A stretch of DNA of 64,000 bases from the NCBI GenBank assembly GCA_965222605.1, contig OZ244960.1, positions 5,088,001-5,152,000 of the forward strand, read 5' to 3'. The position numbers were made by a program, and so were the translations under genes. The DNA comes from Candidatus Latescibacterota bacterium. Its GTDB lineage: Bacteria > Latescibacterota > UBA2968. The notes beneath the pieces were generated by a model that was not told where the DNA came from, did no database searches, and saw nothing but the letters and a program-made list of their open reading frames with translations. Below are positions 14,266 to 46,060 of the stretch, piece after piece; within the stretch, counting starts at the first letter, position 1, and every line of letters starts with the position of its first letter.

Positions 14266-14268
14266 ATT

Positions 14269-14646: not shown

Positions 14647-14647
14647 A

Positions 14648-15841: not shown

Positions 15842-15854
15842 AATACATAATATC

Positions 15855-17016: not shown

Positions 17017-17022
17017 ACCCGT

Positions 17023-21412: not shown

Positions 21413-22077
21413 CGATGACATGTCGAGCAATCCGTGGAAGGGTTAATATCGTAGTCTCGAACCAGTTGTGTGCCCAGCATGGCTTGCGATACCGCATGTC
21501 CGCGTTCATCCATTGGTTTCCATGCCATATTGAAAACTTCTTCGCGGGGACGCACATATTTTTCGGGTGCCCGGTGACATTCCAGACACCATTCCATATT
21601 GAGGGTGTTCACTTTCCACATCAGCGGCATTTGATCGACCTGCCCGTGACAGGTTTGACATCCGATGCCTTTGTGGACGTGAATACTATGATTGAAATAG
21701 ACAAAATCGGGGAGATCGTGTACGCGAACCCACTCTATGGGATTCCCCGTGCGATAACTTTCGCGGATGGGTTCGAGAAGGGGGCTTTCCGTCCAAATCT
21801 GAGAATGACAGGTCATGCAGGTTTCAACAGGAGGGATATTGGCGAAAGAAGATTCTTCAACAGAGGTATGACAATAGCGACAATCGAGGCCCACGCCGGT
21901 CACGTGGTGTTTGTGACTGAAGGGTACGGGCTGTTTTCTTGCGACCAGGACATCGGTTGTGTAGTGCAATCGGTTGGTGTTGAGCAGAATGGTGAGGCCC
22001 GTTCCAACAACAACCAGAACCACGACAATACTGATTCTGGCAAACGCGTCACTGCCACGCGGAAAAAGCTGCGCCAT
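21409..22077 (-). CDS. actA: Alternative complex III subunit A, pentaheme cytochrome c
   Basis: N-terminal TM, 'QPVPFSHKHH', five CxxCH (CRYCH, CMTCH, CQTCH, CLECH, CSTCH). Confidence 0.95.
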   Translation of the reverse strand: MAQLFPRGSDAFARISIVVVLVVVGTGLTILLNTNRLHYTTDVLVARKQPVPFSHKHHVTGVGLDCRYCHTSVEESSFANIPPVETCMTCHSQIWTESPLLEPIRESYRTGNPIEWVRVHDLPDFVYFNHSIHVHKGIGCQTCHGQVDQMPLMWKVNTLNMEWCLECHRAPEKYVRPREEVFNMAWKPMDERGHAVSQAMLGTQLVRDYDINPSTDCSTCHR

Positions 22078-27155: not shown

Positions 27156-27171
27156 ATTCAGGTTTTAAATG

Positions 27172-27222
27172 AAAAAGACAAATGGGAGATATGGCTTTTA
27201 GCCGTGTCTCCCATTTGTTTAT
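27172..27222 (+). terminator. Long hairpin, probable terminator
   Basis: 19-bp stem ACAAATGGGAGATATGGCT-TTT-AGCCGTGTCTCCCATTTGT with two G.U pairs on the plus strand, A-rich 5' flank, about 20 nt after the CPBP stop. Confidence 0.7.
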
Positions 27223-27334
27223 CCAGCGATGAGAAAAGGCCAATAACGTGTCCAGTTTTCAGATACTCATCAGCGCAGCTTTGCGAGGATCGGATTCGAC
27301 AGGGTGAAGCTTGGGAAATGCCTCGGATTATAAC

Positions 27335-27363
27335 TTGCACCATCATCGCATTCATAATAAATT
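27335..27363 (+). promoter_or_regulatory. Putative sigma70 promoter of the TBDR locus
   Basis: TTGCAC-17 nt-TAAATT in an AT-rich spacer; RBS AAGGAGG before ATG 27423. Confidence 0.5.
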
Positions 27364-27422
27364 AGGGAAGATACAATAAGTGCGATTCATCCTGATTATA
27401 CCACAGCCGAAAGGAGGCGTTT

Positions 27423-28133
27423 ATGATCCGATTCCGAAGTATTCTGTTTGGCGGAGTTCTTGTGCTGGTCCTGGGGGGAATCTCATTTGCCCAGGATTTT
27501 ACCCCCCGAGTAGGCATCGGGGGGAATATCAGTCTGAACCTGCCCGTACTGGGACTCCGAACCTGGTTTACGCAGGCCCCGCAATTCGGGGTCAATATAG
27601 TGTATCATCGCCATGCGCGGACAGAGGTGGAGTTCGAATACTACCACGCCCGGTTTGACGGTGGGAGTCTGGAGGATGCCGAGTTTATGTGGGCACCGAC
27701 CGGTACCACAGATCTTCAGTCTTACAAAAGTCCCAACGCGAAGTCCAAAATGCGTTTTCACAGCTTCCTGGTCAACGGCGTCTTCTTTTTTCACAAAGAG
27801 CTCAACAGTCAAAAAGCTCGGCCTTATTTTGCATTCGGGAGTGGTCTTTATCACTACCGTACCACTGAAACAGGGCTCATCTTTCCAGGACAGACGGGTA
27901 ATGCGTTGGACACCAGCATTGTCCTGGAACCCGACGGGAATGTCCGAACGACTGTGGGTATCAATTTTGGTCTGGGCATTGCTTTCTATACATCCGATCG
28001 ATTCGCCCTTGATTTGCGTGGTCGATACCACATTATCATAGGTCAGTTACGCCCCATGGAGGCGTGGGGATTGAAGCAGGTTTATCCCCTCCATGCGCTG
28101 GACCTGGGTATTCGCGTGAAGACCTACTTTTAG
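27423..28133 (+). CDS. Small outer-membrane beta-barrel protein (OmpA-like/8-stranded)
   Basis: Signal peptide ...GGISFA|Q, amphipathic strands, 'RPYFAFGSG', 'GINFGLG', C-terminal beta-signal 'LGIRVKTYF'. Confidence 0.8.
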   Translation: MIRFRSILFGGVLVLVLGGISFAQDFTPRVGIGGNISLNLPVLGLRTWFTQAPQFGVNIVYHRHARTEVEFEYYHARFDGGSLEDAEFMWAPTGTTDLQSYKSPNAKSKMRFHSFLVNGVFFFHKELNSQKARPYFAFGSGLYHYRTTETGLIFPGQTGNALDTSIVLEPDGNVRTTVGINFGLGIAFYTSDRFALDLRGRYHIIIGQLRPMEAWGLKQVYPLHALDLGIRVKTYF

Positions 28134-28145
28134 GGGGAATACAAT

Positions 28146-31100
28146 ATGCGAGAATTAAAACGAATTCTCCTGTGGGGCATGGCGCTGAGTCTGATTCTGA
28201 TCGGCGCTGACTTGACATTCGCCGCAACTACAGGAAAGCTCTCCGGTACCGTCAGAGACGCCCAGGGGCAACCGCTTCCCGGAGCCAATGTGGTCGTCAA
28301 AGGGATGCGTTTGGGGGCCACCACAGACGCCGAAGGAATCTATTTTATTCTTACCGTACCACCCGGGGTGCACACATTGACTGCCTCTCTGGTGGGCTAT
28401 GGAACGATCTCCCAAACCGATGTAAAAGTCGCCGTTGACCTGACTACGACGGTCGATTTCGCGCTGGAGGAAATAGCTCTACAGGCCACAGAACTGATTG
28501 TGATTGCCCAGCGTCCACCTGTGGAACTGGATAAAACCACCAGCAAATACATCCTGGGATCAGAGGATATTGAGTCACTCCCCATCGTCAGAAGCGTATC
28601 TGAACTCGTCGCTTTACAGCCCGGCGTTTTGCCGGAGGGAAATGACATGATCCGCGGCACCGGTGCCGCGGATGTGACCTATTACGTAGATGGAATCCCC
28701 ATCGTGACTACCGATGGCGTGGGTGCATTTGATCGATTCCAGTTTCAAAATATATCGGCTGTCCAGGAACTCACCGTATTGACCGGAGGATGGGAGGCAG
28801 AATATGGCAATGCCCAGGCCGGTATCATCAACCTTGTCACTCGGGAGGCGGGGGAAAATTATTCGGGGCGGTTGGAGTACAAGTTTGATCCTTCGGGCAA
28901 AAGACACTGGGGCAACAACGTTTACGACGCCCCTCAGTTTAGAAATGAATTGAAGTGGGGGAATGCCGCCTGGGAAAATGAGACGGATCCCGAAATGGGA
29001 CAAAATATCCACCAGCGGATCGATTATACCGGTGCAGCAGGCCATTTCATAGAGGCGAATCTATCTGGCCCGCTTACGCCTGACGCCGGGCTATTCGTCA
29101 GCACTCGCTTTGATCGGTCCTCCCGTTCGTTTCCTTCCTCTTCCTCGCACACTCCGGGAAATACGCGCAATACAGTCAAGCTAAATTACAATATGTCAGA
29201 CAATATAAAGGTCAAGCTCGGCGGATTCTACCATTGGGGCAAAGGGTGGAACAACGGCATCAGTTTGGATAGAAGTGCCACGGCCGGCGCCATTCGAGGT
29301 CTGGGAGACGGTGGGAGAAACATCTTTCTACCGGAAGGAAGTTCTGCGGGACGGTTCACGGATAGTGAGAGTTTGATCTACGCCTCTTTGACCCATACCT
29401 TGAGTCCAAAGACATTCTATGAAGCCAAAATATCGCGCTCTTTCTCCAAACAGGATACCAGCGATATTCCCGTAGCTACCCAGCCCTTGCGCAGGGATGC
29501 GGCCGGGTACTTCAACCTGTCGCGCGACGTGCGTGCCTACGAAATTTCAGCGCGCGCGCGTTACAACGTCAAGTTCGATATTTCCAGCCAGATCACGAGA
29601 GGGCATCTGGTCAAGGCCGGGGTTGAACTCACCTATTCCGACGCCTGGGCATTTGGGGAGATTGGAGAAAACGAATCCCGCCGCGTCGTTGCCTTTTACT
29701 CAAAAGATGGAGCTCAGGATGGGAACTTTCAGCGGGGAATCAACCCTTTCCAGTGGGGACTCTATCTGCAAGATAAGATGGAATTCAGCGGCATGATCGT
29801 CAACGCAGGCGTTCGCCTGGATGGATTCCAAAATGGAGAAAAAGGCTCCGCAGTTCCACCTTTTGAAACATCACCTATGTACAACAAACTCCGACATTTC
29901 CGAAACGCACCACGGACAGACGCCGATGCCAAAATCGCGTTCAGCCCTCGATTGGGCGTTTCTCACCCCATCACCGCTGCGAGCACTATCCGGTTTTTCT
30001 ACGGGAGATTTTACAAATTTCCGAATCTCTGGACGATGAACCGACAGGTCTGGGTGGGGAGTTTCCCCGACATCGACATCAACGGCAACGGGCAAATCGA
30101 CCCCGAGGAGCGGTACAATGATCTCGGAAAGGAAAACCAGATCGGCGTTGGAAACGTGGCCACACCACCCGAAAAAACCACCAGTTTTGAGGTGGGAACC
30201 GACTGGAACGTGGTTTCGGACTATACCCTGTCGCTAACCGCCTACTACAAAACGGTAGATAATCAGTTGTCCACTGGTACAACGGGTGGCGAGACGACGA
30301 TTTGGCAGGATCCCGGCACGGGGAGAACCGAGCAGATCCGCGTCAACCTGAGCATCAGGTATGAGGACGTCAAGGGAATTGAGCTTGGTTTCCAGAAGCG
30401 ATTCAGCAATAACTTCGCGTTTCAGACTTCCTTTAACGCGCAGTGGCTATCGGGAGGGCGTGGAGGGGGAGCAGGAGACCGGTTCTTCCCGGATTCAACG
30501 TGGGTCGCCGCTGGAAATTACTGGTTTGGCTATGAGAGTCGAAACGGGCAGGAGGTTCCGATTCCCCTGACCCAGGATGAAATCCGAGAAATCGGATCCA
30601 AAGCGAATCAACTCCTTCGCGACATCCGGGCAGGTGGTGGTCCCAGCAAGGGGCAGGCAGGACCGAATGAACATTTTCTAGCGGCTATTGAAAAGGAACC
30701 CGGCATCTGGGCTATTACCCCCATTCTTTCCGAGCTGAATATTGGCGGCATACGAGGCAGGGACAGAACGGCATTTGGGAGCGTGGCGTTTCTCTACCGA
30801 ACGCCGAGCAATTGGGGCCCAAAGGTTGGCGAAGCGGGTTTGTTCGGAAATATCCAGGCCAACATGATCTATCGCATGCAGACCGGCAGCCGGTTCGAAT
30901 ACTCGCTTCCGGAAGGTGGCGTGGAGGAACGAAATGAACCGCTTCGCACCTGGATTGATTTGAATGCCCAAAAGACGTTCTACGGCCTGAGGGACCGCTT
31001 CGACGTCACGTTGTTCGTCGAAACATACAATCTGTTCAATCAGAAAGATCGGCGGGCAAGAAACTTCGATTATATCCAATGGGGTTTGAGAAAACCCAGG

Positions 31101-31199
31101 CCAACAGACCAGCGCTACAAGGATTTTGGAGATCCGAACGACAGGGCTTTTCTGGGTTTCCCAAGGCAGGTGCATTTGGGATTGAGACTCAGTTTCTAA
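28146..31199 (+). CDS. TonB-dependent receptor with N-terminal CarboxypepD_reg-like domain
   Basis: 'TGKLSGTVRD..GQPLPGANV', plug 'IRG...YYVDGIP', 'VLTGGWEAEYGNAQAGIINLVT', 'YLQDKMEF..MIVNAGVRLD', 'SPRLGVSHPIT', C-terminal 'PRQVHLGLRLSF'. Confidence 0.93.
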   Translation: MRELKRILLWGMALSLILIGADLTFAATTGKLSGTVRDAQGQPLPGANVVVKGMRLGATTDAEGIYFILTVPPGVHTLTASLVGYGTISQTDVKVAVDLTTTVDFALEEIALQATELIVIAQRPPVELDKTTSKYILGSEDIESLPIVRSVSELVALQPGVLPEGNDMIRGTGAADVTYYVDGIPIVTTDGVGAFDRFQFQNISAVQELTVLTGGWEAEYGNAQAGIINLVTREAGENYSGRLEYKFDPSGKRHWGNNVYDAPQFRNELKWGNAAWENETDPEMGQNIHQRIDYTGAAGHFIEANLSGPLTPDAGLFVSTRFDRSSRSFPSSSSHTPGNTRNTVKLNYNMSDNIKVKLGGFYHWGKGWNNGISLDRSATAGAIRGLGDGGRNIFLPEGSSAGRFTDSESLIYASLTHTLSPKTFYEAKISRSFSKQDTSDIPVATQPLRRDAAGYFNLSRDVRAYEISARARYNVKFDISSQITRGHLVKAGVELTYSDAWAFGEIGENESRRVVAFYSKDGAQDGNFQRGINPFQWGLYLQDKMEFSGMIVNAGVRLDGFQNGEKGSAVPPFETSPMYNKLRHFRNAPRTDADAKIAFSPRLGVSHPITAASTIRFFYGRFYKFPNLWTMNRQVWVGSFPDIDINGNGQIDPEERYNDLGKENQIGVGNVATPPEKTTSFEVGTDWNVVSDYTLSLTAYYKTVDNQLSTGTTGGETTIWQDPGTGRTEQIRVNLSIRYEDVKGIELGFQKRFSNNFAFQTSFNAQWLSGGRGGGAGDRFFPDSTWVAAGNYWFGYESRNGQEVPIPLTQDEIREIGSKANQLLRDIRAGGGPSKGQAGPNEHFLAAIEKEPGIWAITPILSELNIGGIRGRDRTAFGSVAFLYRTPSNWGPKVGEAGLFGNIQANMIYRMQTGSRFEYSLPEGGVEERNEPLRTWIDLNAQKTFYGLRDRFDVTLFVETYNLFNQKDRRARNFDYIQWGLRKPRPTDQRYKDFGDPNDRAFLGFPRQVHLGLRLSF

Positions 31200-31213
31200 G
31201 AGGATAAGACAAC

Positions 31214-33472
31214 ATGACTACTATAAAAAGAAAAAGTGTCTTGTTTCTGCTTTTTCCATTGCTGGCGACCCTCTTGCTAACTTCGGAATTGTGGGCGCAG
31301 TCGAGTCCCTTCCAGAGGAAATTCCGACACATGACGCGGGGGAAGGTCTGGCATACGTACAGGAACGGACTCACAGGTCGGGTTCACCGGCAGGTGATGA
31401 GGGATATAGCTGGTATGCAATATCCGGGTTCCATCATTCCGCTGGAACCCACCGAGTTTGAGCAATACTGGAGCTTTGTCAACTATCACTGGTATCCGCG
31501 GTTTACCCGCCGATACGATACCTCTCGAGGCGAGGGTGTAATGATTCTAACAAGAGATCACGGCACCTCGGCAGTTGGCCCGAGTCAGGAATCCGAGGAT
31601 ATTCGGGAAAAGGTATATGACATTGTCAACAGCCCGGAAAAAGATCTGGGATTTATGACCGCCTCCCACTTTACCGGGTTCAGCCCAATGTCCAACTACT
31701 GGCCCGGAGCACCTCCAATTGTAGGTGAGCCTGTGGAGATCCACAACCACGACTATGGGCGGTATATCGGGGACGATTCTCAAGGTGAGGAAATTCTCAT
31801 CACGGCATGGTCCTCCAAAACGGGTATCAGTGTGTCGCAAAAAGCCTTTTCCTGGAGCTATCCCGACTTTGACGACTTCATCATCTACGAATATACTTTC
31901 CACAACAATGGAGACGCCAACGGAGACGGCCAGCCGGATCCCGGTATGCCCGTGCAACTCAACGACGTCTATTTTGCGTTCGTAAACATCATGACCATCT
32001 CTCAGGCGGGGTGCTTTATTTCAAGCCCGGGTGCGTGGTGGGTCGATTTCCCCGAATTGAGGGACGATTTCTACAGATACACCGGTGCCGACAACTACGA
32101 CGGTCCGGCCGAATACGCTGACCTGAAGCTCAGCTACCATTACGACGGGGACGCGCCTTCTACTTTGTGGAATGACGTTGGTGGACCCTACGTTTCGGCG
32201 CGTCACCATTCACTGTTCAAAGGCACGGCGCGAATCGATGGAGAACTGACAGACTTCCAGTACTTTGGGTTTGCCCCTCTGGATTATACCCCACCCTTTA
32301 CAAACGATTCGGAAAACTACGTTGCGCCAAAAGTCGCGGATCAGCCGGTGTCGGTAAAGTGGTGGGAAATCTTCAGCAGAAATAACTTCACATACCCGGA
32401 TCCCAGTAATGATGGTGATGAGCAACTGTGGAATAAACTCGTCGAAGACCAGAGAATCCAATCCAATCCCACCGACATCGGTGATTACGCCCACAGTTAC
32501 ACGTATGGACCATACGATATTGGTCCTGGTGAAAAAGTGAAAATCGTGGCGGTTTTTGCCGGGGGAACAGCTGCCGACGCCAAGGGTACGGGCATCATCG
32601 AATGGGCGCAAACGGGCAATCAAGACGAGGTTTCTCTGGGCCGGGAGGCCCTCGTGGATCATGTGCGCCGTGCTCAATTCGCCTACGATAGCGGCTACGA
32701 TCTGCCCGACCCGCCTCCGGATGTGCGATTTTCAGTGGGAAATAGCGAACGTGGGCAGGTTCTCCTCACATGGCCAGATAATGCCGATCGCGCGTTGGAT
32801 CCTGACTATCGCGAGGCCGATGTAAGAGCCTACCGGGTCTATAGTTCAGGGACCAGGGAAGCGGGGCCTTACAAGTTGCTGAAAGAGATTCCCGTGGGGG
32901 ATGCCGCTCATTTGAGTGGCGGCATCTATTCCTTCGAGGATGAGACTTCCGCTCCCGGCTTCAACTACTGGTACTCGGTTCGCACGGTCGATTCTGGGCA
33001 TTCATCCTGGACTAATAACAACGGTACCAAGACGCTTGCCGACCTGCCCGACAAGGTGCGGCAGAATGTTCAGAGTGGCATGGAAAGCGGGCATTCTTCG
33101 CCTGAGCAGCGGATGCAGGTCTTCACCAGTCCCAAGATCCCCGCAACTGCTAACAAAGACAATTTCGACGATGAAATCCTGGTTGTGCCCAATCCCTATC
33201 GGGATGATGGCACACACAGATATCCGGGATCCAGAAAGATTCGATTTACAAATATCCCCAGAAAGGCCCATATCAAGATCTATTCTCCATCTGGAGACCT
33301 GATCTGGACGATCAATCACGATTCGCCCCTGGGAGAGGCAGAATGGAATCAGGCGCCGCGATCCTTCGCGAGACCAGAGGTGCCATCGGGCATCTACTTC
33401 TACTCTGTGGAATCTCTTGTGGAATCTTCAAAAGGACAGATACGATTCGGTTCGTTTGTAATCATCAAATAG
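31214..33472 (+). CDS. Secreted protein: unknown N-terminal domain, FN3-like domain, T9SS type-A-like/FlgD-Ig C-terminal domain
   Basis: Signal ...ELWA|Q. FN3-like 'PDPPPD...LLTW...AYRVY...YSFED...YWYSVRTVD'. CTD 'ILVVPNPY...IRFTNIP...IKIYSPSGDLI...EW...PSGIYFY.V...GSFVIIK'. Confidence 0.8.
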   Translation: MTTIKRKSVLFLLFPLLATLLLTSELWAQSSPFQRKFRHMTRGKVWHTYRNGLTGRVHRQVMRDIAGMQYPGSIIPLEPTEFEQYWSFVNYHWYPRFTRRYDTSRGEGVMILTRDHGTSAVGPSQESEDIREKVYDIVNSPEKDLGFMTASHFTGFSPMSNYWPGAPPIVGEPVEIHNHDYGRYIGDDSQGEEILITAWSSKTGISVSQKAFSWSYPDFDDFIIYEYTFHNNGDANGDGQPDPGMPVQLNDVYFAFVNIMTISQAGCFISSPGAWWVDFPELRDDFYRYTGADNYDGPAEYADLKLSYHYDGDAPSTLWNDVGGPYVSARHHSLFKGTARIDGELTDFQYFGFAPLDYTPPFTNDSENYVAPKVADQPVSVKWWEIFSRNNFTYPDPSNDGDEQLWNKLVEDQRIQSNPTDIGDYAHSYTYGPYDIGPGEKVKIVAVFAGGTAADAKGTGIIEWAQTGNQDEVSLGREALVDHVRRAQFAYDSGYDLPDPPPDVRFSVGNSERGQVLLTWPDNADRALDPDYREADVRAYRVYSSGTREAGPYKLLKEIPVGDAAHLSGGIYSFEDETSAPGFNYWYSVRTVDSGHSSWTNNNGTKTLADLPDKVRQNVQSGMESGHSSPEQRMQVFTSPKIPATANKDNFDDEILVVPNPYRDDGTHRYPGSRKIRFTNIPRKAHIKIYSPSGDLIWTINHDSPLGEAEWNQAPRSFARPEVPSGIYFYSVESLVESSKGQIRFGSFVIIK

Positions 33473-33488
33473 TCTAAGGAGCTTTGCT

Positions 33489-34475
33489 ATGATGACCAGG
33501 ATATACGCATCAATCTGCGCATTCGCGATTGCTATTTCGCTCCAATCTCCCGCCTATGGGCAGTTTATAGAGATCGAGGACGAGGACATTTACTCCTCAA
33601 CCGCTGCTTCGCGAATTGGGCTCACGGGGTTCGGGTTTTTGAAGATTTCACAAGGCGCGCGGTCTGCGGGAATGGGGGATGCGTACACGGCCATATCCAA
33701 CGATATCAATGCGGCATTCAAGAACCCTGCCGGTCTGACCCATATGAAACGGATCGAGTACGTGTTCTCTTACAACCGGTGGTTGGTAAACAGCACGGTT
33801 GCCTCCGGCGCTGTTGCGGCGAATACGCCGTATGGCGTGGTGGGCGTCACCTTTATAGGTTTCTACCCTGAGAAGAGCAAGGAAACCACCATACTCCAGC
33901 CGCTCGGAACGGGGGAGATGGTGAATGCTGGGGATGTCGCCATCGGATTTCTTTACGCGAAGAAAATGACCGATAAGCTCTCTTTCGGCGTTCACGGTCG
34001 CTGGATTCAGGAAACCCTGCACGACAAGAATATTGCCAGTTATGATGTCTCTCTCGGCACGCTATTCTACACGGGATTTGGCTCCAGCAGGTTGGCGATG
34101 ACATTGCAGAATTTCGGCAAAGACATAACGCCAGAAGCGGTCACTTTCGCCACGCCAATGGTCTTCAATATCGCCGCTGCTATGGAGGTTTATGGAAAGG
34201 CGGAAGACCCCACCTATCTCACAGCCGCAGTCGATTTCAGCTATGCCACTGATTTTGGTGAGCGGCTACATTTTGGCGGTGAGTTCTGGGTCGCAAGAGT
34301 ACTCGTGCTTCGAGCCGGATACAAGACCAATTACGACATCGAGAGTTATTCACTTGGTGCCGGTGTTCGCGTGAACTATTCGGATGGTAGGCAGGTCTCT
34401 GTCGATTTTGCCTATTCGGCGATTGACGGTGGCTTCGATGCTCCGCTGCGCGTGTCTCTGAGCGGGAGTTTTTAG
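33489..34475 (+). CDS. PorV/PorQ-family (FadL-like) outer-membrane beta-barrel
   Basis: 'FLKISQGARSAGMGDAYTAISND..AAFKNPAGL', 'VLRAGY', 'SLGAG', 'VDFAY', terminal Phe. Confidence 0.88.
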   Translation: MMTRIYASICAFAIAISLQSPAYGQFIEIEDEDIYSSTAASRIGLTGFGFLKISQGARSAGMGDAYTAISNDINAAFKNPAGLTHMKRIEYVFSYNRWLVNSTVASGAVAANTPYGVVGVTFIGFYPEKSKETTILQPLGTGEMVNAGDVAIGFLYAKKMTDKLSFGVHGRWIQETLHDKNIASYDVSLGTLFYTGFGSSRLAMTLQNFGKDITPEAVTFATPMVFNIAAAMEVYGKAEDPTYLTAAVDFSYATDFGERLHFGGEFWVARVLVLRAGYKTNYDIESYSLGAGVRVNYSDGRQVSVDFAYSAIDGGFDAPLRVSLSGSF

Positions 34476-34536: not shown

Positions 34537-36525
34537 TTGTCCTCTCTGCAAGATCCCATCGTTAGCCATCCAGTGCCTTCCGCCGCAGAGGAGCGGGGAA
34601 TCACGTTGCGTTCGTTTCTGATTGGGTTGGGTGTGGTCTGTCTGGTCAACCTGTGGGTCACGTGGTCGGATTTAATGATCCATTCCTCAGCCTGGAATCT
34701 GAGCCACTTCCCCATAGTGAATTTCATTCCGTTTGTCATCCTCACAGTCTTATCATCGGTTTCAAACAGGTTGTTTGGTTCGCGCTGGTCTTTTTCATCT
34801 GCCGAACTCGCCACCATTCTGGCCATGGGGCTGGTGGGCAGCGTCGTGCCGACCAACGGATTTATGGGATATGTGATCGGCATTTTGGCCATGCCGTATT
34901 ACCTGGCCACCCCCGAGAATGGTTGGGCGCTCTATTTTCACCCCCACCTTGCCGACTGGATGGCGCCGCGAAATGAAAACGACGCCGTGCGCTACTTTTT
35001 CGAAGGCCTACCCAAAGGTGCGCACATCCCCTGGGAAACCTGGGCAAGCCCGCTTTTCTGGTGGCTCACATTTGCAGCGTCGATCACGCTGATCTCGGCC
35101 TGCACGGTTGTCATTTTGCGCAAGCAATGGACGGAGAACGAACGGCTCGATTATCCCATCATCAGCGTAGGCATCGACATGGCGCTGCGCTCGAATCCCC
35201 GGAACTGGCTGCCGGAATACATGAAAGGCAAGCTGTTCTGGGGTGGTTTTTCGGTCGCCTGCGGAATCGTTTGTTGGAATATTCCCAGTTACTTCGTACC
35301 CGGCCTGCCCGAATTCCCTCTACTTTATAGGTGGTTTACGCTGGCCGCTGGTTTTCCCACAATTGATTTTCATATCAGTTTTTTTGCACTGGCTTTTGCA
35401 TTTTTTGCCAGGCTTGAAGCCCTGTTCAGCGTCTGGTTCTTCTTCCTGATTTTTCTAATCCAGAGCGCGGTATTCAACCGATTCGGATTCACCATCGGCA
35501 CCTCGGGAGATCCCTGGTCTTCCCACAACCCCGCTGTTGGCTGGCAAAGCTGGGGGTCTCTCTGCTTCATCGTGGCCTGGGGGATCTGGGTTGCTCGTCA
35601 TCATCTACGCGACGTGTTTTCCAAGGCCATCTGGGGGGCACCAGGTGAGGGCAGCACTGAAGAGATGATGTCTTACCGGATGGCTCTTACCGGCCTGATC
35701 AGCGGACTGGTTTATGCCATTGGATTTCTGTACTGTGCGGGCATGAGCTATACCATGGCCTTCGCGCTCTTGCTTTCCACGCTCATCGGCTACCTGGGTG
35801 TATCCCGCATCTTAGTGGAAACCGGGTTGCTCTACGTGGTCGTACCGGTAACGGGTCAGTCCTCCACCGTATATTTTCTGGGATCGCGTGGCCTGCCGGA
35901 ATCCTCGATGACAGCCATGGTATTCACCTACATCCTCGTCACGAGGGGCGCCGGTATGTTCATGCCTTCGCTGACCCATCTGGGCAAGCTCGCAGACCGG
36001 ATTCCCCAGATTCGAAAGCGTCTGATCTACGCGCTTGGTGCCTCAATCGCGAGCGGCGTTCTGGTTGCCGCCATTGTAACCCTGTACCTGGGTTACACGA
36101 AGGGGGCATACAACTTCAACGTATGGGTGTTGGGCGGGGGCGGCAGTCAGCGGCCTTTCATCGATACGCTGGTCAAGATGCAGTCGCCATTCACAACAGA
36201 CTGGTATCGCATCTTCTTTTTTTCATTCGGGGCGCTGGTCTCGGCCGTGCTGGTGGCTTTGCGCTACCGCTTTCCCTGGTGGCCCCTTTCTCCTATCGGA
36301 TTTCCTCTGGCCACTTCCTGGCCCATGCGCAGAGTCGGGTTCACCATCTTTCTGGCCTGGTTCATCAAGGCCACCATCATGAAACTGGGAGGTGCCGTGC
36401 TCTATCGCCGGTGCCAGCCCTTTGCAGTCGGGCTTCTGGTCGGTTGGGCAGCCGGAGTCGGCATCTCTTTCGTGGTTGACATCTTCTACTTTCCCGGCAA
36501 CGGACACGGGATTCACTCGTATTGA
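34537..36525 (+). CDS. DUF6785/DUF6784-like polytopic membrane protein (putative transporter), paralog 2
   Basis: TTG start after GAGGAG; 'YYLATPENGW', 'LRKQWTENERLDYP', 'RFPWWPLSPIGF'. Confidence 0.75.
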   Translation: MSSLQDPIVSHPVPSAAEERGITLRSFLIGLGVVCLVNLWVTWSDLMIHSSAWNLSHFPIVNFIPFVILTVLSSVSNRLFGSRWSFSSAELATILAMGLVGSVVPTNGFMGYVIGILAMPYYLATPENGWALYFHPHLADWMAPRNENDAVRYFFEGLPKGAHIPWETWASPLFWWLTFAASITLISACTVVILRKQWTENERLDYPIISVGIDMALRSNPRNWLPEYMKGKLFWGGFSVACGIVCWNIPSYFVPGLPEFPLLYRWFTLAAGFPTIDFHISFFALAFAFFARLEALFSVWFFFLIFLIQSAVFNRFGFTIGTSGDPWSSHNPAVGWQSWGSLCFIVAWGIWVARHHLRDVFSKAIWGAPGEGSTEEMMSYRMALTGLISGLVYAIGFLYCAGMSYTMAFALLLSTLIGYLGVSRILVETGLLYVVVPVTGQSSTVYFLGSRGLPESSMTAMVFTYILVTRGAGMFMPSLTHLGKLADRIPQIRKRLIYALGASIASGVLVAAIVTLYLGYTKGAYNFNVWVLGGGGSQRPFIDTLVKMQSPFTTDWYRIFFFSFGALVSAVLVALRYRFPWWPLSPIGFPLATSWPMRRVGFTIFLAWFIKATIMKLGGAVLYRRCQPFAVGLLVGWAAGVGISFVVDIFYFPGNGHGIHSY

Positions 36526-36537: not shown

Positions 36538-37905
36538 ATGGCAAATTCAATAGAAATCGGTATCGCGCGTGCCGACATCACCCCTGCGGTGGGCATACCC
36601 ATGGTCGGTTTTGCTGGACGAGGATCTTCGACGCGTGTAAACGACCCGTTGTACGCTACGGCCATGGCTGTTTCCTGTGCGGGGGAGCAAGCCGTATTGA
36701 TCGCTTTGGATCTCCTTCAGTTTAAGGCGGAAACGGTTGCCGAGTTTCGCGCACTCATCCAGGCCGCATCGGGAATCTCCGCTGATCGGATTATCCTGGC
36801 ATGCAGCCACACCCATTACGGGCCTGATATCGATCGCGCAGGTAAGCAAACCTCATCGCCGGGACCGGGTCCAGCCGAAGCCTCTGAGTTGGTCGATGCC
36901 TATCGGATTCATCTCGGATTCAAACTGGCGGGTCTGGTACAGGAGGCACAGCAAAATTTGAAGCCAGCGCGAATGGGTATCGGCTGGGGCAGTTCCGACA
37001 TCGGTATTAACCGCAGGGAGAAGACCCCTGATGGGCGGATTATTCTCGGCAACAACTACGACGGGCCTGTTGACCGCGAGGTCGGCATTGCGCGGATTGA
37101 AGATACAGAGGGAAATCCCATCGCTTGTCTGGTCAATTTTGCGACGCATCCCGTTGCACAGACTTCTCAGCAACGCGCCATTTCCGCCGGGTTTCCCGGA
37201 AAGATGGCCCGCGTGGTAGAGAATCTCACTGGCGCGTATTGTCTTTTTCTACAGGGGGCGGCAGGAAATATCAATCCATCTGCCGGATTCCGGATTCCAG
37301 ATCAGCGGCCCGAAGACCTCCACAAACCGTCGGACAGCCTGGGGATTCGACTGGGCTGCGAAGCGGTACGCGTGTGGGAAACCATCACAGTCGGCGAGTC
37401 CCAGGGCTTGAATATCGCTTCAAAAACCATAAGTCTGCCTCGCTACATGTACGGCGACTTAAAAAGCGCAAAACAGCTCGATGGGGAATTTGCTCATGAG
37501 TTGGAAACGAGAAATCTCTCAGAAGGGCAGCGATATTGGACAGAGCTGAGGCAAAGTCGGGTGCGGGAAGCGATTAGAAGCCATCAGACGGGGGTTCCTC
37601 TCGATCCCGTTGAGGCGGAATTGCAGACATGGCGAATCGGCGATCTCGCCTTTGTGACTGCACCGGCGGAGATTTTTACTGAAAATGGCACGCTTGTGAA
37701 AAATCAATCTTCGTTCGATCACACTTTCTTCGTGGGCTATGCCAATGGCTCCATTGGGTATGTACCTACCGTGGATGCCTACCCCGAGGGGGGGTACGAA
37801 GTCACCCACGCCTGCCAGGTTGACCCCGAGGCGGGCGGTATGATCAACGAGAATTGCCTGGCACTGCTCCGGCAGCATAGCGAAGGAGATTTATATGGCA
37901 AATAG
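36538..37905 (+). CDS. Neutral/alkaline ceramidase-like amidohydrolase, paralog 1
   Basis: 'GIARADITP..G.PMVGF', 'DPLYA', 'SHTHYGP', 'INRR', 'NFATHP', 'FLQGAAGNINP', 'PAEIF', 'GYVP...GGYE'. Confidence 0.8.
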   Translation: MANSIEIGIARADITPAVGIPMVGFAGRGSSTRVNDPLYATAMAVSCAGEQAVLIALDLLQFKAETVAEFRALIQAASGISADRIILACSHTHYGPDIDRAGKQTSSPGPGPAEASELVDAYRIHLGFKLAGLVQEAQQNLKPARMGIGWGSSDIGINRREKTPDGRIILGNNYDGPVDREVGIARIEDTEGNPIACLVNFATHPVAQTSQQRAISAGFPGKMARVVENLTGAYCLFLQGAAGNINPSAGFRIPDQRPEDLHKPSDSLGIRLGCEAVRVWETITVGESQGLNIASKTISLPRYMYGDLKSAKQLDGEFAHELETRNLSEGQRYWTELRQSRVREAIRSHQTGVPLDPVEAELQTWRIGDLAFVTAPAEIFTENGTLVKNQSSFDHTFFVGYANGSIGYVPTVDAYPEGGYEVTHACQVDPEAGGMINENCLALLRQHSEGDLYGK

Positions 37906-39367
37906 ACCCAATATCCTGGTGATCATGTCCGATCAGCACAGCAAATTCCACATCGGATGTTATGGCGATGAAGTGGTTCGAACCCCGCATATGGACCGGC
38001 TTGCCGCCGAAGGCATACGGTTCAACAACGCCTATTGTGCAGCGCCGCTTTGCGTACCCAGCCGGATGGCTTTTATGACATCCAGAACGCCCACCGCGAA
38101 TCGCGTCTGGACAAATAGTCACATCCTCTCTTCCGCCATTCCCACCTGGGCACATGGCATGGGCGCAGCCGGCTATGAAACTGCTCTGATCGGCCGGATG
38201 CACTTTATTGGATCGGATCAGCGGCACGGATTCGAACGACGGCCGATCGGCGAACACGGCGCGCACCATCCGGGGGCACGCCGGAAAGGCGCCCCTCTAT
38301 TCCGCAAGATGCCCCTGGGAGTATCTGGGCAGAGCCGCGTAAGTGTAGAATACGCCGGATACGGGTTGTGTACCTATCAGGCCTATGATGACATGGTCGT
38401 TGCTTCTGCCCTCGATTATCTGGATGAAAAGGCTCAAGATAGGGGGGATCGCCCGTTTGCCGCCGTGGCTGGTTTTGTTTTGCCACACTGCCCTTATATC
38501 GCGGCCACAAAGGAACTTTTTGAATATTATTACGACCGGGTAGATGTTCCACAGCCAACGCCTGAAGAGGCACAGAGAGCACCTGCGGCCATTCGCAAGC
38601 TGAAACGCCTGCGCGATCTGGATCATCCGCTTCCCGAAGAACGCATTCGCGTGGCCCGGGCAGCCTATTTTGCCATGTGTGAGTATTTTGACAGCATCGT
38701 CGGCCAGATGCTCCAGAAGCTGGATGAGACGGGGCTGGCCGAAAACACGCTGGTCATCTACTGCTCTGACCACGGCGAAATGGCCGGAGAACACGGACTG
38801 TGGTCCAAAAGCAATTACTACGAAGCCTCTGTTTCCGTGCCCCTCATTGCCCGTTTGCCCGGGGTCATCCCAATGGGTGGAATCAGCGATAGCATCTGCA
38901 ACCTCATGGATATTGGACCGACCCTGATCGAGATGGCTGGCGCTACTCCCATGCCTGCTACCGATGGACGTTCGCTGTGGCCCCAGATGTGCGGAGAGAA
39001 CGATCCGAACTGGGTCGATGAAACCTTCAGCGAACATCTCTGGGAAGCCAACGAAGTGCCTTCGAGAATGATTCGAAGCGGTCCGTGGAAGCTTTACAAG
39101 TACAACGAACCCACCCCTCCAGCGCTCTTTAACCTGAAAGAAGACCCCGGAGAACTCAATGACCTGGGTCTGGACACGCGGCACCAGGATGTCCGAGAGA
39201 AGCTCTTGAAACGCCTCTACGAAGATTGGGATCCCGCAGGTATTATCAATGAAACAGCTATTCTGGACCGGGATTATCGTGTCATTTCGGCATGGGGCCA
39301 GGCCGTCCAGCCCATACACGAAGACACTGTAGCCGTGCCGGATGTGGAAGATATAGAACTTCGATAG
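37895..39367 (+). CDS. Formylglycine-dependent sulfatase (Cys-type, choline-sulfatase-like)
   Basis: 'PNILVIMSDQH', 'TPHMDRLA', CxPxR 'LCVPSR', 'GRMHF', 'SDHGE', 'KSNYYE'; no signal peptide. Confidence 0.92.
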   Translation: MANRPNILVIMSDQHSKFHIGCYGDEVVRTPHMDRLAAEGIRFNNAYCAAPLCVPSRMAFMTSRTPTANRVWTNSHILSSAIPTWAHGMGAAGYETALIGRMHFIGSDQRHGFERRPIGEHGAHHPGARRKGAPLFRKMPLGVSGQSRVSVEYAGYGLCTYQAYDDMVVASALDYLDEKAQDRGDRPFAAVAGFVLPHCPYIAATKELFEYYYDRVDVPQPTPEEAQRAPAAIRKLKRLRDLDHPLPEERIRVARAAYFAMCEYFDSIVGQMLQKLDETGLAENTLVIYCSDHGEMAGEHGLWSKSNYYEASVSVPLIARLPGVIPMGGISDSICNLMDIGPTLIEMAGATPMPATDGRSLWPQMCGENDPNWVDETFSEHLWEANEVPSRMIRSGPWKLYKYNEPTPPALFNLKEDPGELNDLGLDTRHQDVREKLLKRLYEDWDPAGIINETAILDRDYRVISAWGQAVQPIHEDTVAVPDVEDIELR

Positions 39368-39395
39368 ATGGTGAATTCAAATTAAGTGTGATCAC

Positions 39396-41384
39396 GTGTC
39401 CCAACCATTAGAAACTCGACGCGACCGACAAGATCAGGTGCCCGACTCTTCTCGATATAGGGGGTTGACCCTTCGCTCGGTACTCATTGGGCTTTGCGTT
39501 GCTGGTCTGGCCAACTTCTGGGTGACCTGGTCCGACTACGTCATACATTCCTCGACATGGAACCTGAGCCATTTTCCGATGGTCAACTTCATCCTCTTTC
39601 TATTGTTGACCGTCTTTTCCGCTGTGGCCGGACGAGTGCTTGGCCCCCGGTTTGCGCTTGCACCTTCGGAATTGGCAACAATAATGAGCATGGGGCTGGT
39701 CGGCAGCGTCGTGCCCACCAACGGATTTATCGGATATGTTCTCGGCATTCTGGCGACGCCGTATTATCTGGCGACGCCGGAAAACGGATGGGGAATCTAT
39801 TACCATCCCTACATTCCCGATTGGATGGTGCCATCGAACTCGGGTGAATCCATGCGGTATCTCTTTGAGGGGTTGCCCGGTGGCCTGCAGATTCCATGGC
39901 AGGTCTGGATTGGTCCTCTTCTCTGGTGGCTGAGTTTTGCCGGGGGTATTGCCCTGGTCTCGGCCTGTACTGTCGTATGCTTGAGAAAACAATGGACTGA
40001 TTACGAACGCCTCGATTATCCCATCATCGGGGTGGGAACCGATATGGCAATGAGGTCGCGGGCTGTGGGTTGGTTGCCGGAATATATGCACGGCCGCATT
40101 TTCTGGGGTGGATTCGCGGTTTCTTGCGGCATCGTTTGCTGGAATATTCCAGGCTACTTCATGCCCGGTATACCTGCTTTCCCGCTCTTGCCTCAGTGGT
40201 TCACCTTTGCAACCGGTTTTCCGACGATTGATTTCCACATCAGCTTTTTTGCCTTTGCCTTCGCCTTCTTCGTCAATCTCGAGGCCCTGTTCAGCGCCTG
40301 GTTCTTTTTCTTGCTGTTCATTTTACAAAGCGGCGTCTTCAACCGGTTTGGCTACACCATAGGCACTCGTGGTGATCCCTGGTCCTCTCTAAATCCTGCA
40401 GTGGGTTGGCAAAGCTGGGGGGCGATGTGTTTTATAGTCTTCTGGGGGCTCTGGGTTGGGCGAAATCACATCAAGCAAGTCTTCTACCAGGCCTTCTGTT
40501 CCGCCCGGGCTGGTCGTTCAGAAGAAATGATGTCCTACCGCATAGCTATTTTCGGGTTGGTCTTCGGTCTCGTCTATGTGATCGGCTTTCTGCACCATGC
40601 GGGAATGAGCTATAAGATGGCTGTTATCCTGATTTGCTGTACTCTCGTCGGATACCTTGGTGTTGCCCGTATCGTAGCCGAGACAGGCCTTCTTTATGTC
40701 GTCGTACCGGTGACGGGCCAGTCGGCTACCATATACCTTCTGGGGTCATATGGTATGCCTCCGGAAAGCATGACGTCCATGGTCTTCACCTATATGCTCG
40801 TTACCCGGGGCGCAGCTATGTTTATGCCCTCGTTCACGCAAATGGGCAAACTCGCGGATCGAATTCCCCAGATTCGACGAGGACTGATGCCGGCACTGGG
40901 TGGTGCAATCGTCGCCGGGGTCGTGATTTCCATTGTGGTTACCTTCTATCTGGGATACAGCCAGGGCGCCTACAACTTCAACACCTGGGTATTCGGTCTG
41001 GGAAGTCAGGTTCCCTTTATCGACACACTCACGAAAATCCGAACGCCCTTCTCCACGGACTGGAATCGCCTTTTTTTCTTTGGAATCGGAGTGGCTGTCT
41101 CTGCCTTGTTGACCTTTCTGCGTTACAGGTTTCCATGGTGGCCCCTTTCTCCGATCGGCTTTCCGCTTTCCACCTCCTGGCCAATGCGGAGGATCGGGTT
41201 CACAATTTTTCTGGCCTGGTTGGTAAAGGCGCTGGTTATGAAGATCGGAGGCGTTGTCCTCTACAGGCGATTTCAGCCCTTTGCACTGGGCCTGGTTGTC
41301 GGTTGGGCCGTCGGTGTGGGAATATCTTTTGTGGTAGATATCATCTGGTTTCCCGGTCAAGGACACAGGATTCACTGGTATTGA
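39396..41384 (+). CDS. DUF6785/DUF6784-like polytopic membrane protein (putative transporter), paralog 3
   Basis: GTG start, 662 aa, colinear with paralog 2 and sharing long identical blocks. Confidence 0.75.
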   Translation: MSQPLETRRDRQDQVPDSSRYRGLTLRSVLIGLCVAGLANFWVTWSDYVIHSSTWNLSHFPMVNFILFLLLTVFSAVAGRVLGPRFALAPSELATIMSMGLVGSVVPTNGFIGYVLGILATPYYLATPENGWGIYYHPYIPDWMVPSNSGESMRYLFEGLPGGLQIPWQVWIGPLLWWLSFAGGIALVSACTVVCLRKQWTDYERLDYPIIGVGTDMAMRSRAVGWLPEYMHGRIFWGGFAVSCGIVCWNIPGYFMPGIPAFPLLPQWFTFATGFPTIDFHISFFAFAFAFFVNLEALFSAWFFFLLFILQSGVFNRFGYTIGTRGDPWSSLNPAVGWQSWGAMCFIVFWGLWVGRNHIKQVFYQAFCSARAGRSEEMMSYRIAIFGLVFGLVYVIGFLHHAGMSYKMAVILICCTLVGYLGVARIVAETGLLYVVVPVTGQSATIYLLGSYGMPPESMTSMVFTYMLVTRGAAMFMPSFTQMGKLADRIPQIRRGLMPALGGAIVAGVVISIVVTFYLGYSQGAYNFNTWVFGLGSQVPFIDTLTKIRTPFSTDWNRLFFFGIGVAVSALLTFLRYRFPWWPLSPIGFPLSTSWPMRRIGFTIFLAWLVKALVMKIGGVVLYRRFQPFALGLVVGWAVGVGISFVVDIIWFPGQGHRIHWY

Positions 41385-41484
41385 GAGAGGCTTTTTGTCG
41401 ATCTAATCTATTTGCACACTGTAGGCTACAGGATAGTAGATATTCAAAAACTGAACTTCGACTGATCTATTGGAGTGAGAATCT

Positions 41485-42954
41485 ATGAATCGCGTAACCG
41501 ATCCCCGCGGGGAATCTCTAAAACTGATCGTCCCTTCCCAGACAGCCATCGGACAGCCGTTTACAGTCACTTTGGTCGCTTTTCTTCCAAATGGCAGGAC
41601 CAACTGGCATTACGACGGCACCTTGCACTTTGAGGTACTCTCAGATCCCAAGGTGCAAGGCGCTGGGCAAGTCCATGCGATCCCGGTTGCGGGTGGTGCT
41701 TTTAAGCATACTATGCGCTTGCTGACCGCCGGGTTGCACCGCATCTCCGTAAGAGATGAAGAGCGGGAGATGATCGCTCTTTCAAATGCCATTGTGGCCT
41801 ATGAAGATGCTCCTGAGTTGAATCTTTACTGGGGTGATATCCATATTCACGCAGGCGAAAGAAATCGGCATCAGGAAATTTCCGATGCGTACGCTTCCAT
41901 CGACTACAACTACCATTTTGGACGGCATGTAGCGGGTCTGGATTTTATGGCGCTGTCCGACCATGACCATCTCGGGTCCTGGAGGCGTGGTATCATTCCG
42001 ATATGGAACCGGTTCAAGAAAGCTGCGGAATACTTTTATCGTCCGGGTGAATTCGTCACCCTCCTGGGTTGGGAATGGACAAATGGTATCCACTTATGTC
42101 CGGGACGCCCTCAATATGGGCAAAAATGCGTCTATTTCAGGGATGGTGATGGTCCAATCTTCAGCGCGTCTGATCCCGGCAGCGACACGCCCGAAAAGCT
42201 GTACGATCACCTTCGGGCGCATCGTTGTTTTGTAATACCCCATCACGTTTCGGCACCGATCAATTTCTACAATGATTGGGACCATCACGACCCCGGCATT
42301 GAGCGCCTGGTGGAAATCTACTCGGGCTGGGGATGTGGAGAGCGCTCCGCCGGTGATGGCAACGCCTACCCGATTCGACCTGATCGCGAAGGTGACATGA
42401 AAGGCCACCATGTGATAGATGCACTTGCGCGAGGGCATACACTCGGGTTTACTGCCGGGGGAGATACGCATGATGCGGCGCCGGGAATCGGACATACATT
42501 TAATGGCCTTACCGGGAGGTTTGAGAACCAGCGTTGGGGGGGATTCAAGAAGCGGTATCGCCCCGGACTCCAGGGCGTGTGGGCGGAGGATCTCACGCGC
42601 GAGTCCATCTTTGAATCTATTTATTCCCGCCGGTCATACGGAACAACAGGTGCTCGCATCATTGTGAACACAGAACTGAACGGTGCGCCGATGGGAACAG
42701 TATTTGCTCTTCAGCCAGCCCATCCCTTCACCTATCGCGCTCATGTGGTCGGCACCAACAGATTGAAGCAACTCGAAATCGTTCGGAACGGAGAAACCGT
42801 ATATGTGAAGCAACCGGATTCAGAAACTTGCGACATCGAATTCACCGACCCCTTTCCCATAGACGACCGAGCTTACTACTACCTTCGCGTCACCCAAGAA
42901 GACAGTCACATGGCCTGGGCGAGTCCCCATTTTCTCCCGGGAAAGGCGGGTTGA
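41485..42954 (+). CDS. PHP-fold metallohydrolase (DUF3604 / CehA-McbA-like), paralog 1
   Basis: 'YWGDIHIH', 'LDFMALSDHD', 'GWEWT', 'IPHH', 'LVEIYSGWG', 'GGDTH', 'RRSYGTTG', 'YYLRVTQED...AWASP'. Confidence 0.8.
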   Translation: MNRVTDPRGESLKLIVPSQTAIGQPFTVTLVAFLPNGRTNWHYDGTLHFEVLSDPKVQGAGQVHAIPVAGGAFKHTMRLLTAGLHRISVRDEEREMIALSNAIVAYEDAPELNLYWGDIHIHAGERNRHQEISDAYASIDYNYHFGRHVAGLDFMALSDHDHLGSWRRGIIPIWNRFKKAAEYFYRPGEFVTLLGWEWTNGIHLCPGRPQYGQKCVYFRDGDGPIFSASDPGSDTPEKLYDHLRAHRCFVIPHHVSAPINFYNDWDHHDPGIERLVEIYSGWGCGERSAGDGNAYPIRPDREGDMKGHHVIDALARGHTLGFTAGGDTHDAAPGIGHTFNGLTGRFENQRWGGFKKRYRPGLQGVWAEDLTRESIFESIYSRRSYGTTGARIIVNTELNGAPMGTVFALQPAHPFTYRAHVVGTNRLKQLEIVRNGETVYVKQPDSETCDIEFTDPFPIDDRAYYYLRVTQEDSHMAWASPHFLPGKAG

Positions 42955-42999
42955 TATTTTGCAAAATTGGATTTACAAATGTCATAAGGAGCCGTATCT

Positions 43000-44430: not shown

Positions 44431-44481
44431 TTCGCTCTGTGCCGCATCTTGCCCAGTGGTTGTCAGACTGTGGAGAAAACT

Positions 44482-45978: not shown

Positions 45979-46060
45979 ATAGGACATAGACATCACTAAC
46001 ACATATATTGGATCACCCTCGCTTCCATCAGGCATTGGAACTGACACAGAAAGGGCACCT

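Follow-up and report, generated by a model that had tools for sequence, protein, structure and literature searches.

The locus described here raises the question of how a TonB-dependent transporter (TBDT) might be provided with a surface partner where SusD is missing. It is a cassette of four genes at 27423-34475 of a 64,000-nt stretch of the Candidatus Latescibacterota contig OZ244960.1; this stretch is called the window, and coordinates are positions in it unless another locus is named. A preliminary description of this DNA had claimed four closely spaced co-oriented genes behind a single promoter-like region, with a 752-aa secreted protein in the place of SusD and a PorV-family barrel directly after it. 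The answer proposed here, to which slightly better than even weight is given, is that the cassette is a SusD-less uptake unit, in which a surface partner delivered via a type IX secretion system (T9SS) is held on a private PorV paralogue.

The four open reading frames (ORFs) were found exactly as claimed, on the + strand and with successive gaps of 12, 14 and 16 nt (Table 1). They are called genes 1 to 4 and encode a small outer-membrane barrel, the TBDT, the 752-aa protein and the PorV-like barrel. Inspection of the translations revealed a signal-peptidase-I-type signal peptide on all four products and a lipobox cysteine on none.

The product of gene 3 does not resemble SusD. No match to the SusD family was obtained with Pfam or NCBIfam, either for the protein or for its family members, and none of the features of SusD/RagB proteins (family match, helical fold, lipoprotein signal) was present. 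The AlphaFold2 model of the whole chain, built from a 51-sequence alignment (pLDDT 86.8, pTM 0.88), is all-beta, unlike the helical TPR-like fold of SusD. The relatives of gene 3 comprise 53 protein clusters; a lipobox-like pattern was seen in only 4 of 80 relatives, in all four within the hydrophobic core, and judged by its sequence the product is not a lipoprotein. The protein is composed of a signal peptide (residues 1-29), an N-domain, an FN3-like domain, a linker and a C-terminal domain (CTD), and the replacement of SusD by a 752-aa protein with a signal-peptidase-I-type signal, as first described, is borne out.

The large N-domain, described earlier as unrecognised, was matched only by unnamed clusters and by no named family in Pfam, NCBIfam and Atlas; at a threshold of E<=1e-3, 526 representative clusters are related to it, and at E<=1e-10 there are 214. 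When the domain was modelled by itself (pLDDT 85.3, pTM 0.90), Foldseek matched it to the non-catalytic N-terminal sandwiches of the glycoside hydrolases GH116, GH94, GH65 and GH15, with TMq of 0.29-0.37 and E of about 1e-6 to 1e-5. A reading of gene 3 as a glycoside hydrolase or other enzyme was dropped, as the only parts of glycoside hydrolases hit by the whole-chain and N-domain searches were these non-catalytic sandwiches, at low TM. Since no catalytic barrel is present in the N-domain, it is read as a binding or scaffold module rather than a hydrolase, and the enzyme, which the preliminary description had offered as one option, appears from the models less likely than a binding protein. 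The FN3-like domain of that description stands as a fold, with the model and Foldseek matches to tandem FN3 structures in its favor; its sequence match is weak and sub-threshold. Por_Secre_tail was above its cut-off in 10 of the 60 N-domain relatives scanned, these 60 being taken from the 150 listed. The N-domain superfamily is thus linked time and again with signals of the T9SS.

The tail of gene 3 had been called a type-A T9SS-like CTD at about 33170-33472. This stood as to its position and in a profile comparison, and was missed by the curated models TIGR04183 and PF18962. Sub-threshold matches were obtained to CHU_C (19 bits against a cut-off of 27, residues 680-740) and to the C-terminus of PorZ (24.5 bits, residues 644-729); among 51 members of the gene 3 family, FlgD_ig was found in 11 and CHU_C in 5. 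Because the tail lies below the curated CTD thresholds, a profile of the gene 3 family tails was compared by hhalign with a profile of ten tails that pass Por_Secre_tail and come from distant relatives of the gene 3 N-domain. The two aligned over 63 columns with a probability of 97.4% and E of 1.3e-11, whereas a control with the FN3 region gave 0.6%. The PNP, I-Y..G..V, W and G-I-Y motifs were in register with the reference tails, with a 9-residue insertion after PNP; in gene 3 itself the motifs read PNP, I-x-I-Y..G-D-L-V, G-x-Y and a terminal K. Profile comparison thus shows the tail to be a homologue of true type-A CTDs. Of 80 gene 3 relatives, 75 end in K or R; a lysine that is almost invariant and matters for function is described near the C-terminus of type-A CTDs in passages of PMC10994853. 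The model places seven strands of at least three residues across residues 656-750, mostly at pLDDT 70-97, in agreement with a CTD beta-sandwich of about seven strands. When mean distances were calculated by domain, the CTD (0.488) lay below the FN3-like domain (0.495) and the N-domain (0.557). As the most conserved domain by this measure, the CTD would fit a retained module better than a discarded signal.

Gene 4 was assigned to the PorV/PorQ family by NF033709, with 143.1 bits (cut-off 90) over residues 46-326. The scores for the individual members of the family were below their cut-offs, namely 53.7 for PorV NF033710 (250), 58.1 for PorQ NF033711 (220) and 34.8 for PorV2 (325), and weaker matches were observed to Toluene_X/FadL (21 bits) and BamG (19.3 bits). 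No match to PorP/SprF was found for gene 4 in Pfam or NCBIfam. The sole PDB match of the gene 4 family profile was PorV of Flavobacterium johnsoniae (6h3i_F, E 2.1e-21), so the earlier claim of a PorV-family barrel directly after the CTD protein holds.

For the pairing of this barrel with the CTD a confident interface was predicted, as the preliminary description would have it. The complex of the tail (residues 640-752) with the mature barrel (residues 26-328) was predicted in three runs with three controls; each run scored 0.92, and the best control scored 0.00. As many as 0.92 was attained by 58 of 80 solved complexes and by 2 of 110 mismatched pairs; since the prediction was run on custom alignments, these calibration counts are only approximate for it. 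The runs shared at least 86% of their contacts, and the pLDDT of the partner was at least 85. On the CTD, the last strand and the conserved stretches PNP, IY..GD and GIY are among the confident contacts. On the barrel, the contact sites are spaced about 35-40 residues apart and one lies 12-14 residues from the C-terminus, which by ordinary barrel topology would put the CTD on the extracellular loop face. The model supports, and does not show, binding of the gene 3 CTD by the gene 4 barrel.

The transporter, gene 2, has the general features of a TBDT: a plug, a TonB-box-like motif before it, a large barrel and a terminal aromatic residue. Pfam gave 71 bits for CarboxypepD_reg and 35.9 bits for the plug (cut-off 23.9). 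The protein ends in F, and 78 of 79 relatives end in F or W. The barrel appears divergent, because no Pfam barrel model was matched at E<=0.1. When the family profile was compared with the PDB, FepA-type plugs were found at E of about 1e-14, and the N-terminal third of the SusC homologue 8aa4_A was found at E 3e-11, over profile positions 12-369 only. The SusC/RagA model TIGR04056 stayed below its cut-off (65.2 bits against 368.25), its match being restricted to residues 31-277. Oar-type receptors also have a CarboxypepD_reg N-terminus, together with an Oar-like barrel and a part in the export of a protease; in gene 2 the CarboxypepD_reg domain is present, and no barrel model of any kind was matched. 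Gene 1 itself gave a weak OMP_b-brl match in Pfam, and this match was found in 20 of 23 members of its family.

Relatives of gene 3 were collected in a scan of one genome per species, which gave at least 593 pattern matches, at least 506 of them confirmed; the best 80 of these were analysed. By their labels, 65 loci are from Latescibacterota or Latescibacteria, 10 from Gemmatimonadota or Gemmatimonas, two from an 'uncultured bacterium' and one each from KSB1, Calditrichota and Cytophagia. The top-scoring locus is 97% identical to the copy in the window and lies on chromosome OZ242320.1; among the best 80 loci, at least seven copies are on OZ253501.1 and at least six on OZ244937.1. The cassette is massively duplicated in Candidatus Latescibacterota, and genomes with the labels Gemmatimonadota, KSB1 and Calditrichota carry it as well. 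A phmmer comparison (E<=1e-5) of the window proteins with ORFs from the 80 loci revealed a relative of the TBDT in 79 loci, of the PorV-like barrel in 78 and of the small barrel in 60; the three loci without a TBDT or a PorV-like gene stop at a contig edge. The genes are always in the order 1-2-3-4 or 2-3-4 on one strand, the TBDT preceding and the PorV-like gene following gene 3. The triplet seen in the window is conserved, and its recurrence in essentially all 80 loci puts the arrangement far beyond chance.

The 73 loci in which genes 2, 3 and 4 are all full-length form 21 orthogroups at >=70% identity. As had been expected of partners, the three genes co-diverge: the distance matrices are correlated at r = 0.96-0.98 for all pairs and at 0.72-0.78 for pairs more than 45% divergent, and none of 500 Mantel permutations reached the observed correlation. 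The co-divergence shows that the cassette is duplicated as a block, with no swapping of its genes. For the distances of the CTD, the partial correlation was 0.37 with the PorV-like barrel, with the TBDT controlled for, and 0.15 with the TBDT; for those of the N-domain, it was 0.47 with the TBDT and 0.27 with the barrel. It is suggestive only that the CTD tracks the barrel and the N-domain tracks the TBDT.

Some loci depart from the common layout. In locus L065 (KSB1), one TBDT and one PorV-like gene accompany three tandem gene 3 paralogues in the order 2-3-4-3-3, and in L049 a second copy of gene 3 is found 3 kb downstream; a single barrel may serve several CTD proteins in some lineages. Two close relatives of the window locus have split genes. 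In L002 (about 6900-10000), the TBDT is in pieces of 710 and 323 aa, separated by about 1.2 kb in which a minus-strand ORF lies, and in L003 (12270-13260), the PorV-like gene is in overlapping ORFs of 203 and 127 aa. These splits could be insertions, frameshifts or errors in the assembly of metagenome-assembled genomes.

Taken as a modular unit for nutrient uptake at the outer membrane, the cassette would work as follows. The 752-aa protein, on which a signal peptide is seen, would be exported by Sec to the periplasm and would then pass the T9SS translocon, guided by its type-A-like tail. The tail would be captured by the barrel encoded next door, as the predicted complex suggests, and if the CTD is kept there, a permanent surface anchor other than a lipid would result. 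It is suggested in the relevant part of the review PMC10202324 that cognate PorV-like barrels protect the CTD from cleavage. The anchored ectodomain, consisting of the N-domain and the FN3-like domain, would catch the substrate and pass it to the TBDT, thus doing for it what SusD does for SusC; gene position and co-divergence are the grounds for assigning the ectodomain to the TBDT. The substrate would finally cross the inner membrane, perhaps or probably through the DUF6785/6784 protein encoded downstream, and would be processed by locus-specific enzymes. A wider proposal is made more tentatively and is held somewhat less probable than its contrary: that Latescibacterota and the neighbouring candidate phyla of the Fibrobacterota-Chlorobiota-Bacteroidota (FCB) group equip their TBDTs with surface partners anchored other than by lipid, a beta-sandwich lid being delivered by a T9SS-type tail and permanently kept by a private PorV paralogue, each cassette having its own recognition pair of CTD and barrel, with a specificity code among type-A-like CTDs, and that this alternative to SusCD was evolved or retained independently.

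Several observations weigh against a T9SS-delivered partner held on its own barrel. Neither TIGR04183 nor PF18962 matched gene 3 at E<=0.1 in Pfam and NCBIfam, and Por_Secre_tail was found in none of the 51 gene 3 family members. No SprA, PorK/L/M/N or PorU turned up in the 39 proteins scanned from the window, in the 43 most frequent families of the flanks or in 7 large flank ORFs, a negative that says little because the search covered about 10 kb on each side of the cassettes and not the rest of the genomes. Structures of PorV-CTD complexes (SprA-PorV-CTD) have already been solved, as reported in passages of PMC10994853, so the score of 0.92 may in part reflect likeness to, or memory of, these structures. 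The N-domain matches known folds weakly (TMq 0.29-0.37), and no site for a ligand was made out on it. Linked genes diverge together irrespective of any binding between their products, and linkage alone could yield the same pattern. A private PorV for each cargo also departs from the known rule of one PorV, since a single PorV serves all type-A CTDs in Flavobacterium johnsoniae according to the part of PMC12618676 concerned.

The rival that survives best starts from the standard fate of type-A cargo, as given in passages of PMC10202324 and PMC10994853. The barrel, as a T9SS carrier specific to the cassette, would only ferry the 752-aa protein out of the translocon, a PorU-type sortase would cut off the CTD, and the product would be released or bound to lipopolysaccharide and act as a binding protein in that form, not on the barrel. 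The gene 3 tail is indeed type-A-like, and the complex prediction suits transient binding equally well. Such shuttling and release is nevertheless considered unlikely, as the CTD is the most conserved domain of gene 3 and co-diverges with the adjoining barrel, while generic shuttling would not need every cassette to have a barrel of its own, as is the case in 78 of 80 loci; in addition, PorU was seen near no cassette in the flank families and large flank ORFs, a search that did not extend to whole genomes.

It was also considered that no working T9SS acts on gene 3, so that the protein is periplasmic and contacts the barrel from the periplasmic side, or is exported by the TBDT-like protein. 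Export by a TBDT-like protein has been reported for Oar and PopC of Myxococcus. The lack of any T9SS core gene in the window and flank sequences examined, the tail below the curated CTD thresholds and the CarboxypepD_reg N-terminus of the TBDT would agree with this; the Por_Secre_tail on 10 of 60 distant N-domain relatives and the presence of TIGR04183 in Latescibacterota loci speak against it. The predicted interface would moreover lie on the loop face, which is taken to be the extracellular side, and gene 2 has a conserved TonB-box-like motif and a plug, as importers have, which makes this explanation quite improbable.

As to T9SS signals in the phylum, a 618-aa protein whose gene lies shortly downstream of a cassette, on a 5.4-Mb contig from Latescibacterota (L022:13741-15594), scored 38.4 bits with TIGR04183 (cut-off 23), and FlgD_ig was above its cut-off in four of six flank proteins scanned, those four from loci labelled Latescibacterota. 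These matches lend indirect support to the use of T9SS signals by Latescibacterota. Proteins of about 618 aa are encoded by tandem genes directly downstream of cassettes without gene 1 (in L022, the gene at 13741-15594 and the two following genes; also L024, L026 and L046), and a weak dCache_2 match was seen in two further members of the same cluster (L022:18009-19859 and L024:17805-19724); these proteins may be additional surface binding proteins.

Finally, it is likewise quite improbable that the PorV-family protein is an independent FadL-type channel for hydrophobic substrates that does not bind gene 3, whose Ig-like tail would then serve another contact, for the weak Toluene_X/FadL match in gene 4, the FadL fold of PorV-family barrels (noted in part of PMC12611786) and the ceramidase-like and PhyH-type genes that adjoin some cassettes are set against 143 bits for PorV_fam versus 21 for FadL, a family profile with PorV as its sole PDB match, a barrel that always directly follows the CTD protein with a predicted interface of 0.92 versus 0.00 in controls, and neighbouring enzymes that vary widely between orthogroups.

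Table 1. Features of the cassette and its surroundings (nucleotide positions in the window; aa, residues of the encoded protein)
Feature	Position	Strand	Basis
Terminator-like hairpin after upstream Rce1-like gene	27180-27216	+	read from sequence
Strong Shine-Dalgarno sequence before gene 1	27410-27417	+	read from sequence
Gene 1, small outer-membrane beta-barrel, 236 aa, signal peptide	27423-28133	+	ORF, OMP_b-brl
Gene 2, TBDT, 1017 aa	28146-31199	+	CarboxypepD_reg, Plug
CarboxypepD_reg N-terminal extension of gene 2	aa 32-108		Pfam
TonB-box-like stretch of gene 2, E-x-V-V-V-A-E-R-P-P	about aa 116-125		kept in 26 sequences
Plug of gene 2	aa 130-226		Pfam
Gene 3, secreted non-lipoprotein, 752 aa	31214-33472	+	ORF, AlphaFold2 model
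N-domain of gene 3, unnamed beta-supersandwich family	31301-32698 (aa 30-495)	+	model
FN3-like beta-sandwich of gene 3	32699-33013 (about aa 496-600)	+	model strands 507-593
Divergent type-A-like T9SS CTD of gene 3	33167-33472 (aa 652-752)	+	hhalign, model
Gene 4, PorV/PorQ-family outer-membrane barrel, 328 aa, signal peptide, C-terminal F	33489-34475	+	NF033709
DUF6785/DUF6784 polytopic membrane protein, 662 aa, 11 hydrophobic segments	34537-36525	+	family match
Run of putative catabolic genes	36538-53219	+	co-directional

Upstream of the cassette, the hairpin in Table 1 consists of an outer stem of 10 bp and an inner stem GGCT/AGCC, followed by GTTTAT. It was missed by the consensus scan because its loop is longer than 8 nt, and it is likely the boundary where a new transcription unit starts. 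The single promoter-like region claimed ahead of the cassette was not recovered: a sigma-70 scan of the 267-nt gap upstream of gene 1 (27156-27422) gave no promoter, with the qualification that FCB promoters fall outside the consensus of the scan. No terminator was found between gene 4 and the next gene by the consensus scan.

That next gene encodes a protein of the uncharacterised DUF6785/6784 family, which accompanies the cassette more often than any other neighbour (in 50 of 81 sources), mostly one to four genes downstream and on the same strand, and which may be the inner-membrane transporter of the cassette. The window holds three such paralogues on the + strand (7013-8983, 34537-36525 and 39396-41384), each with 11 hydrophobic segments. 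The co-directional run at 36538-53219 encodes ceramidase-like, sulfatase, second DUF6785/6784, two DUF3604 and M81/MlrC peptidase proteins, hydantoinase B and A, an S15 peptidase and a second ceramidase-like protein; by strand and spacing only, it is inferred to be in the same unit as the cassette. Its first five genes, through the first DUF3604 gene, are kept in the orthologous loci L001, L003 and L004. Elsewhere, the flanks vary by orthogroup and include sulfatases, ceramidase-like and DUF3604 genes, as in the window, as well as GH130-like, PALP and PhyH genes, GFO/IDH/MocA and SDR oxidoreductases, peptidases and GntR or LacI regulators. No SusD-family protein was encountered in the 39 proteins of the window or in the 43 most frequent families of the flanks. 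The surroundings of the cassette follow the logic of a polysaccharide utilisation locus (PUL) with different parts.

Other genes of the window and the flanks were noted as well. Three paralogues in the window (36538-37905, 51918-53219 and 58127-59548) weakly match the N-terminal part of neutral/alkaline ceramidase, and a cluster of ceramidase-like relatives is found beside cassettes in 17 loci. GWxTD-domain proteins recur by cassettes (L008:13372-14748, L068:19694-22231, L076:16740-20234 and others), either as the domain alone, with about 459 aa and, in one orthogroup of 11 loci, right behind the PorV-like gene, or joined with TPR repeats, with 846-1310 aa; together these proteins form clusters that are present in 23 and 12 loci. 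On the - strand at 10156-21430, an alternative complex III (a 1004-aa molybdopterin/4Fe-4S protein, NrfD-like protein, ActD and cytochromes c) precedes an SCO1-like gene and the genes for subunits II, I and III of cytochrome c oxidase, which indicates aerobic respiration in this Latescibacterota lineage. A 981-aa ORF at 59675-62620 (- strand) joins a full hydantoinase B/oxoprolinase to a class I/II aminotransferase domain; in total, the window has three hydantoinase B and two hydantoinase A genes. A DUF1800/DUF1501 pair at 3278-5875 (+ strand) precedes an NHL-repeat beta-propeller protein at 5897-6892, and the product of 8992-9750 (- strand) belongs, by annotation only, to the aminoglycoside 3-N-acetyltransferase family (Antibiotic_NAT, 132 bits).

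No description of the cassette was found in open-access papers and bioRxiv. In the available text of the Caldithrix genome paper, only BtuB-type receptors are mentioned, and in that of the 2015 paper on Latescibacteria single-amplified genomes, Plug-domain proteins are mentioned for B12 and iron only. If the proposed uptake unit is real, TonB-dependent capture with a surface partner would not be tied to SusD or to lipoprotein export, and a T9SS-type tail on a PorV-like barrel would be an anchoring route other than lipid. The succession of a TBDT, an N-domain/CTD protein and a PorV-like gene, often followed by DUF6785/6784, could serve as a marker for substrate-utilisation loci in a widespread uncultured phylum that are invisible to SusCD-based PUL finders. 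The 73 complete loci in 21 orthogroups would also be a natural library of pairs of CTD and PorV-family barrel, in which carrier recognition and the protection of the CTD from cleavage could be studied, both of which are treated as open in the T9SS literature.

Among known systems, the cassette shares with SusC/SusD (RagA/RagB) a TBDT of about 1000 aa with a CarboxypepD_reg-type extension, followed by the gene for a large secreted partner, and it shares with the PULs built on SusC/SusD the regulators, inner-membrane carrier and enzymes nearby and the many paralogous copies with differing enzyme sets. Unlike SusD, the partner is an all-beta non-lipoprotein with no SusD match; the TBDT fails the SusC/RagA model, and two extra barrels are present. 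Surface lipoproteins other than SusD also capture ligands for TBDTs, namely BtuG on BtuB and TbpB with TbpA; these are lipid-anchored, whereas the anchor proposed here is a protein barrel that holds a CTD. Anchoring of this kind has precedents in T9SS itself, where the CTD of PorZ is kept on PorQ and that of PorU on PorV at the cell surface (stated in part of PMC10202324). The tail of gene 3 weakly matches the C-terminus of PorZ, and PorZ 5m11 was among the matches of the whole-chain fold search (E 8.6e-6). PorQ-PorZ and PorV-PorU are single-copy parts of the secretion housekeeping, in contrast to the cassette, which has many copies per genome and is coupled to a TBDT. The type-B cargo of T9SS has its own PorP/SprF barrel encoded adjacently, as in SprB-SprF (from portions of PMC12618676 and PMC10202324). 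The cassette likewise has the cargo gene adjoining that of its own carrier or anchor barrel, but the gene 3 tail aligns with type-A CTDs and gene 4 belongs to the PorV/PorQ family. BamG-BamH offers a FadL/PorV-fold barrel as an outer-membrane pedestal for an extracellular protein, as set out in part of PMC12611786, and gene 4 weakly matches BamG; BamH, unlike gene 3, is a lipoprotein bound by its N-terminal tail and has no CTD, and the pair serves barrel assembly and not uptake. The cassette would work like a SusCD pair but is not a member of that family.

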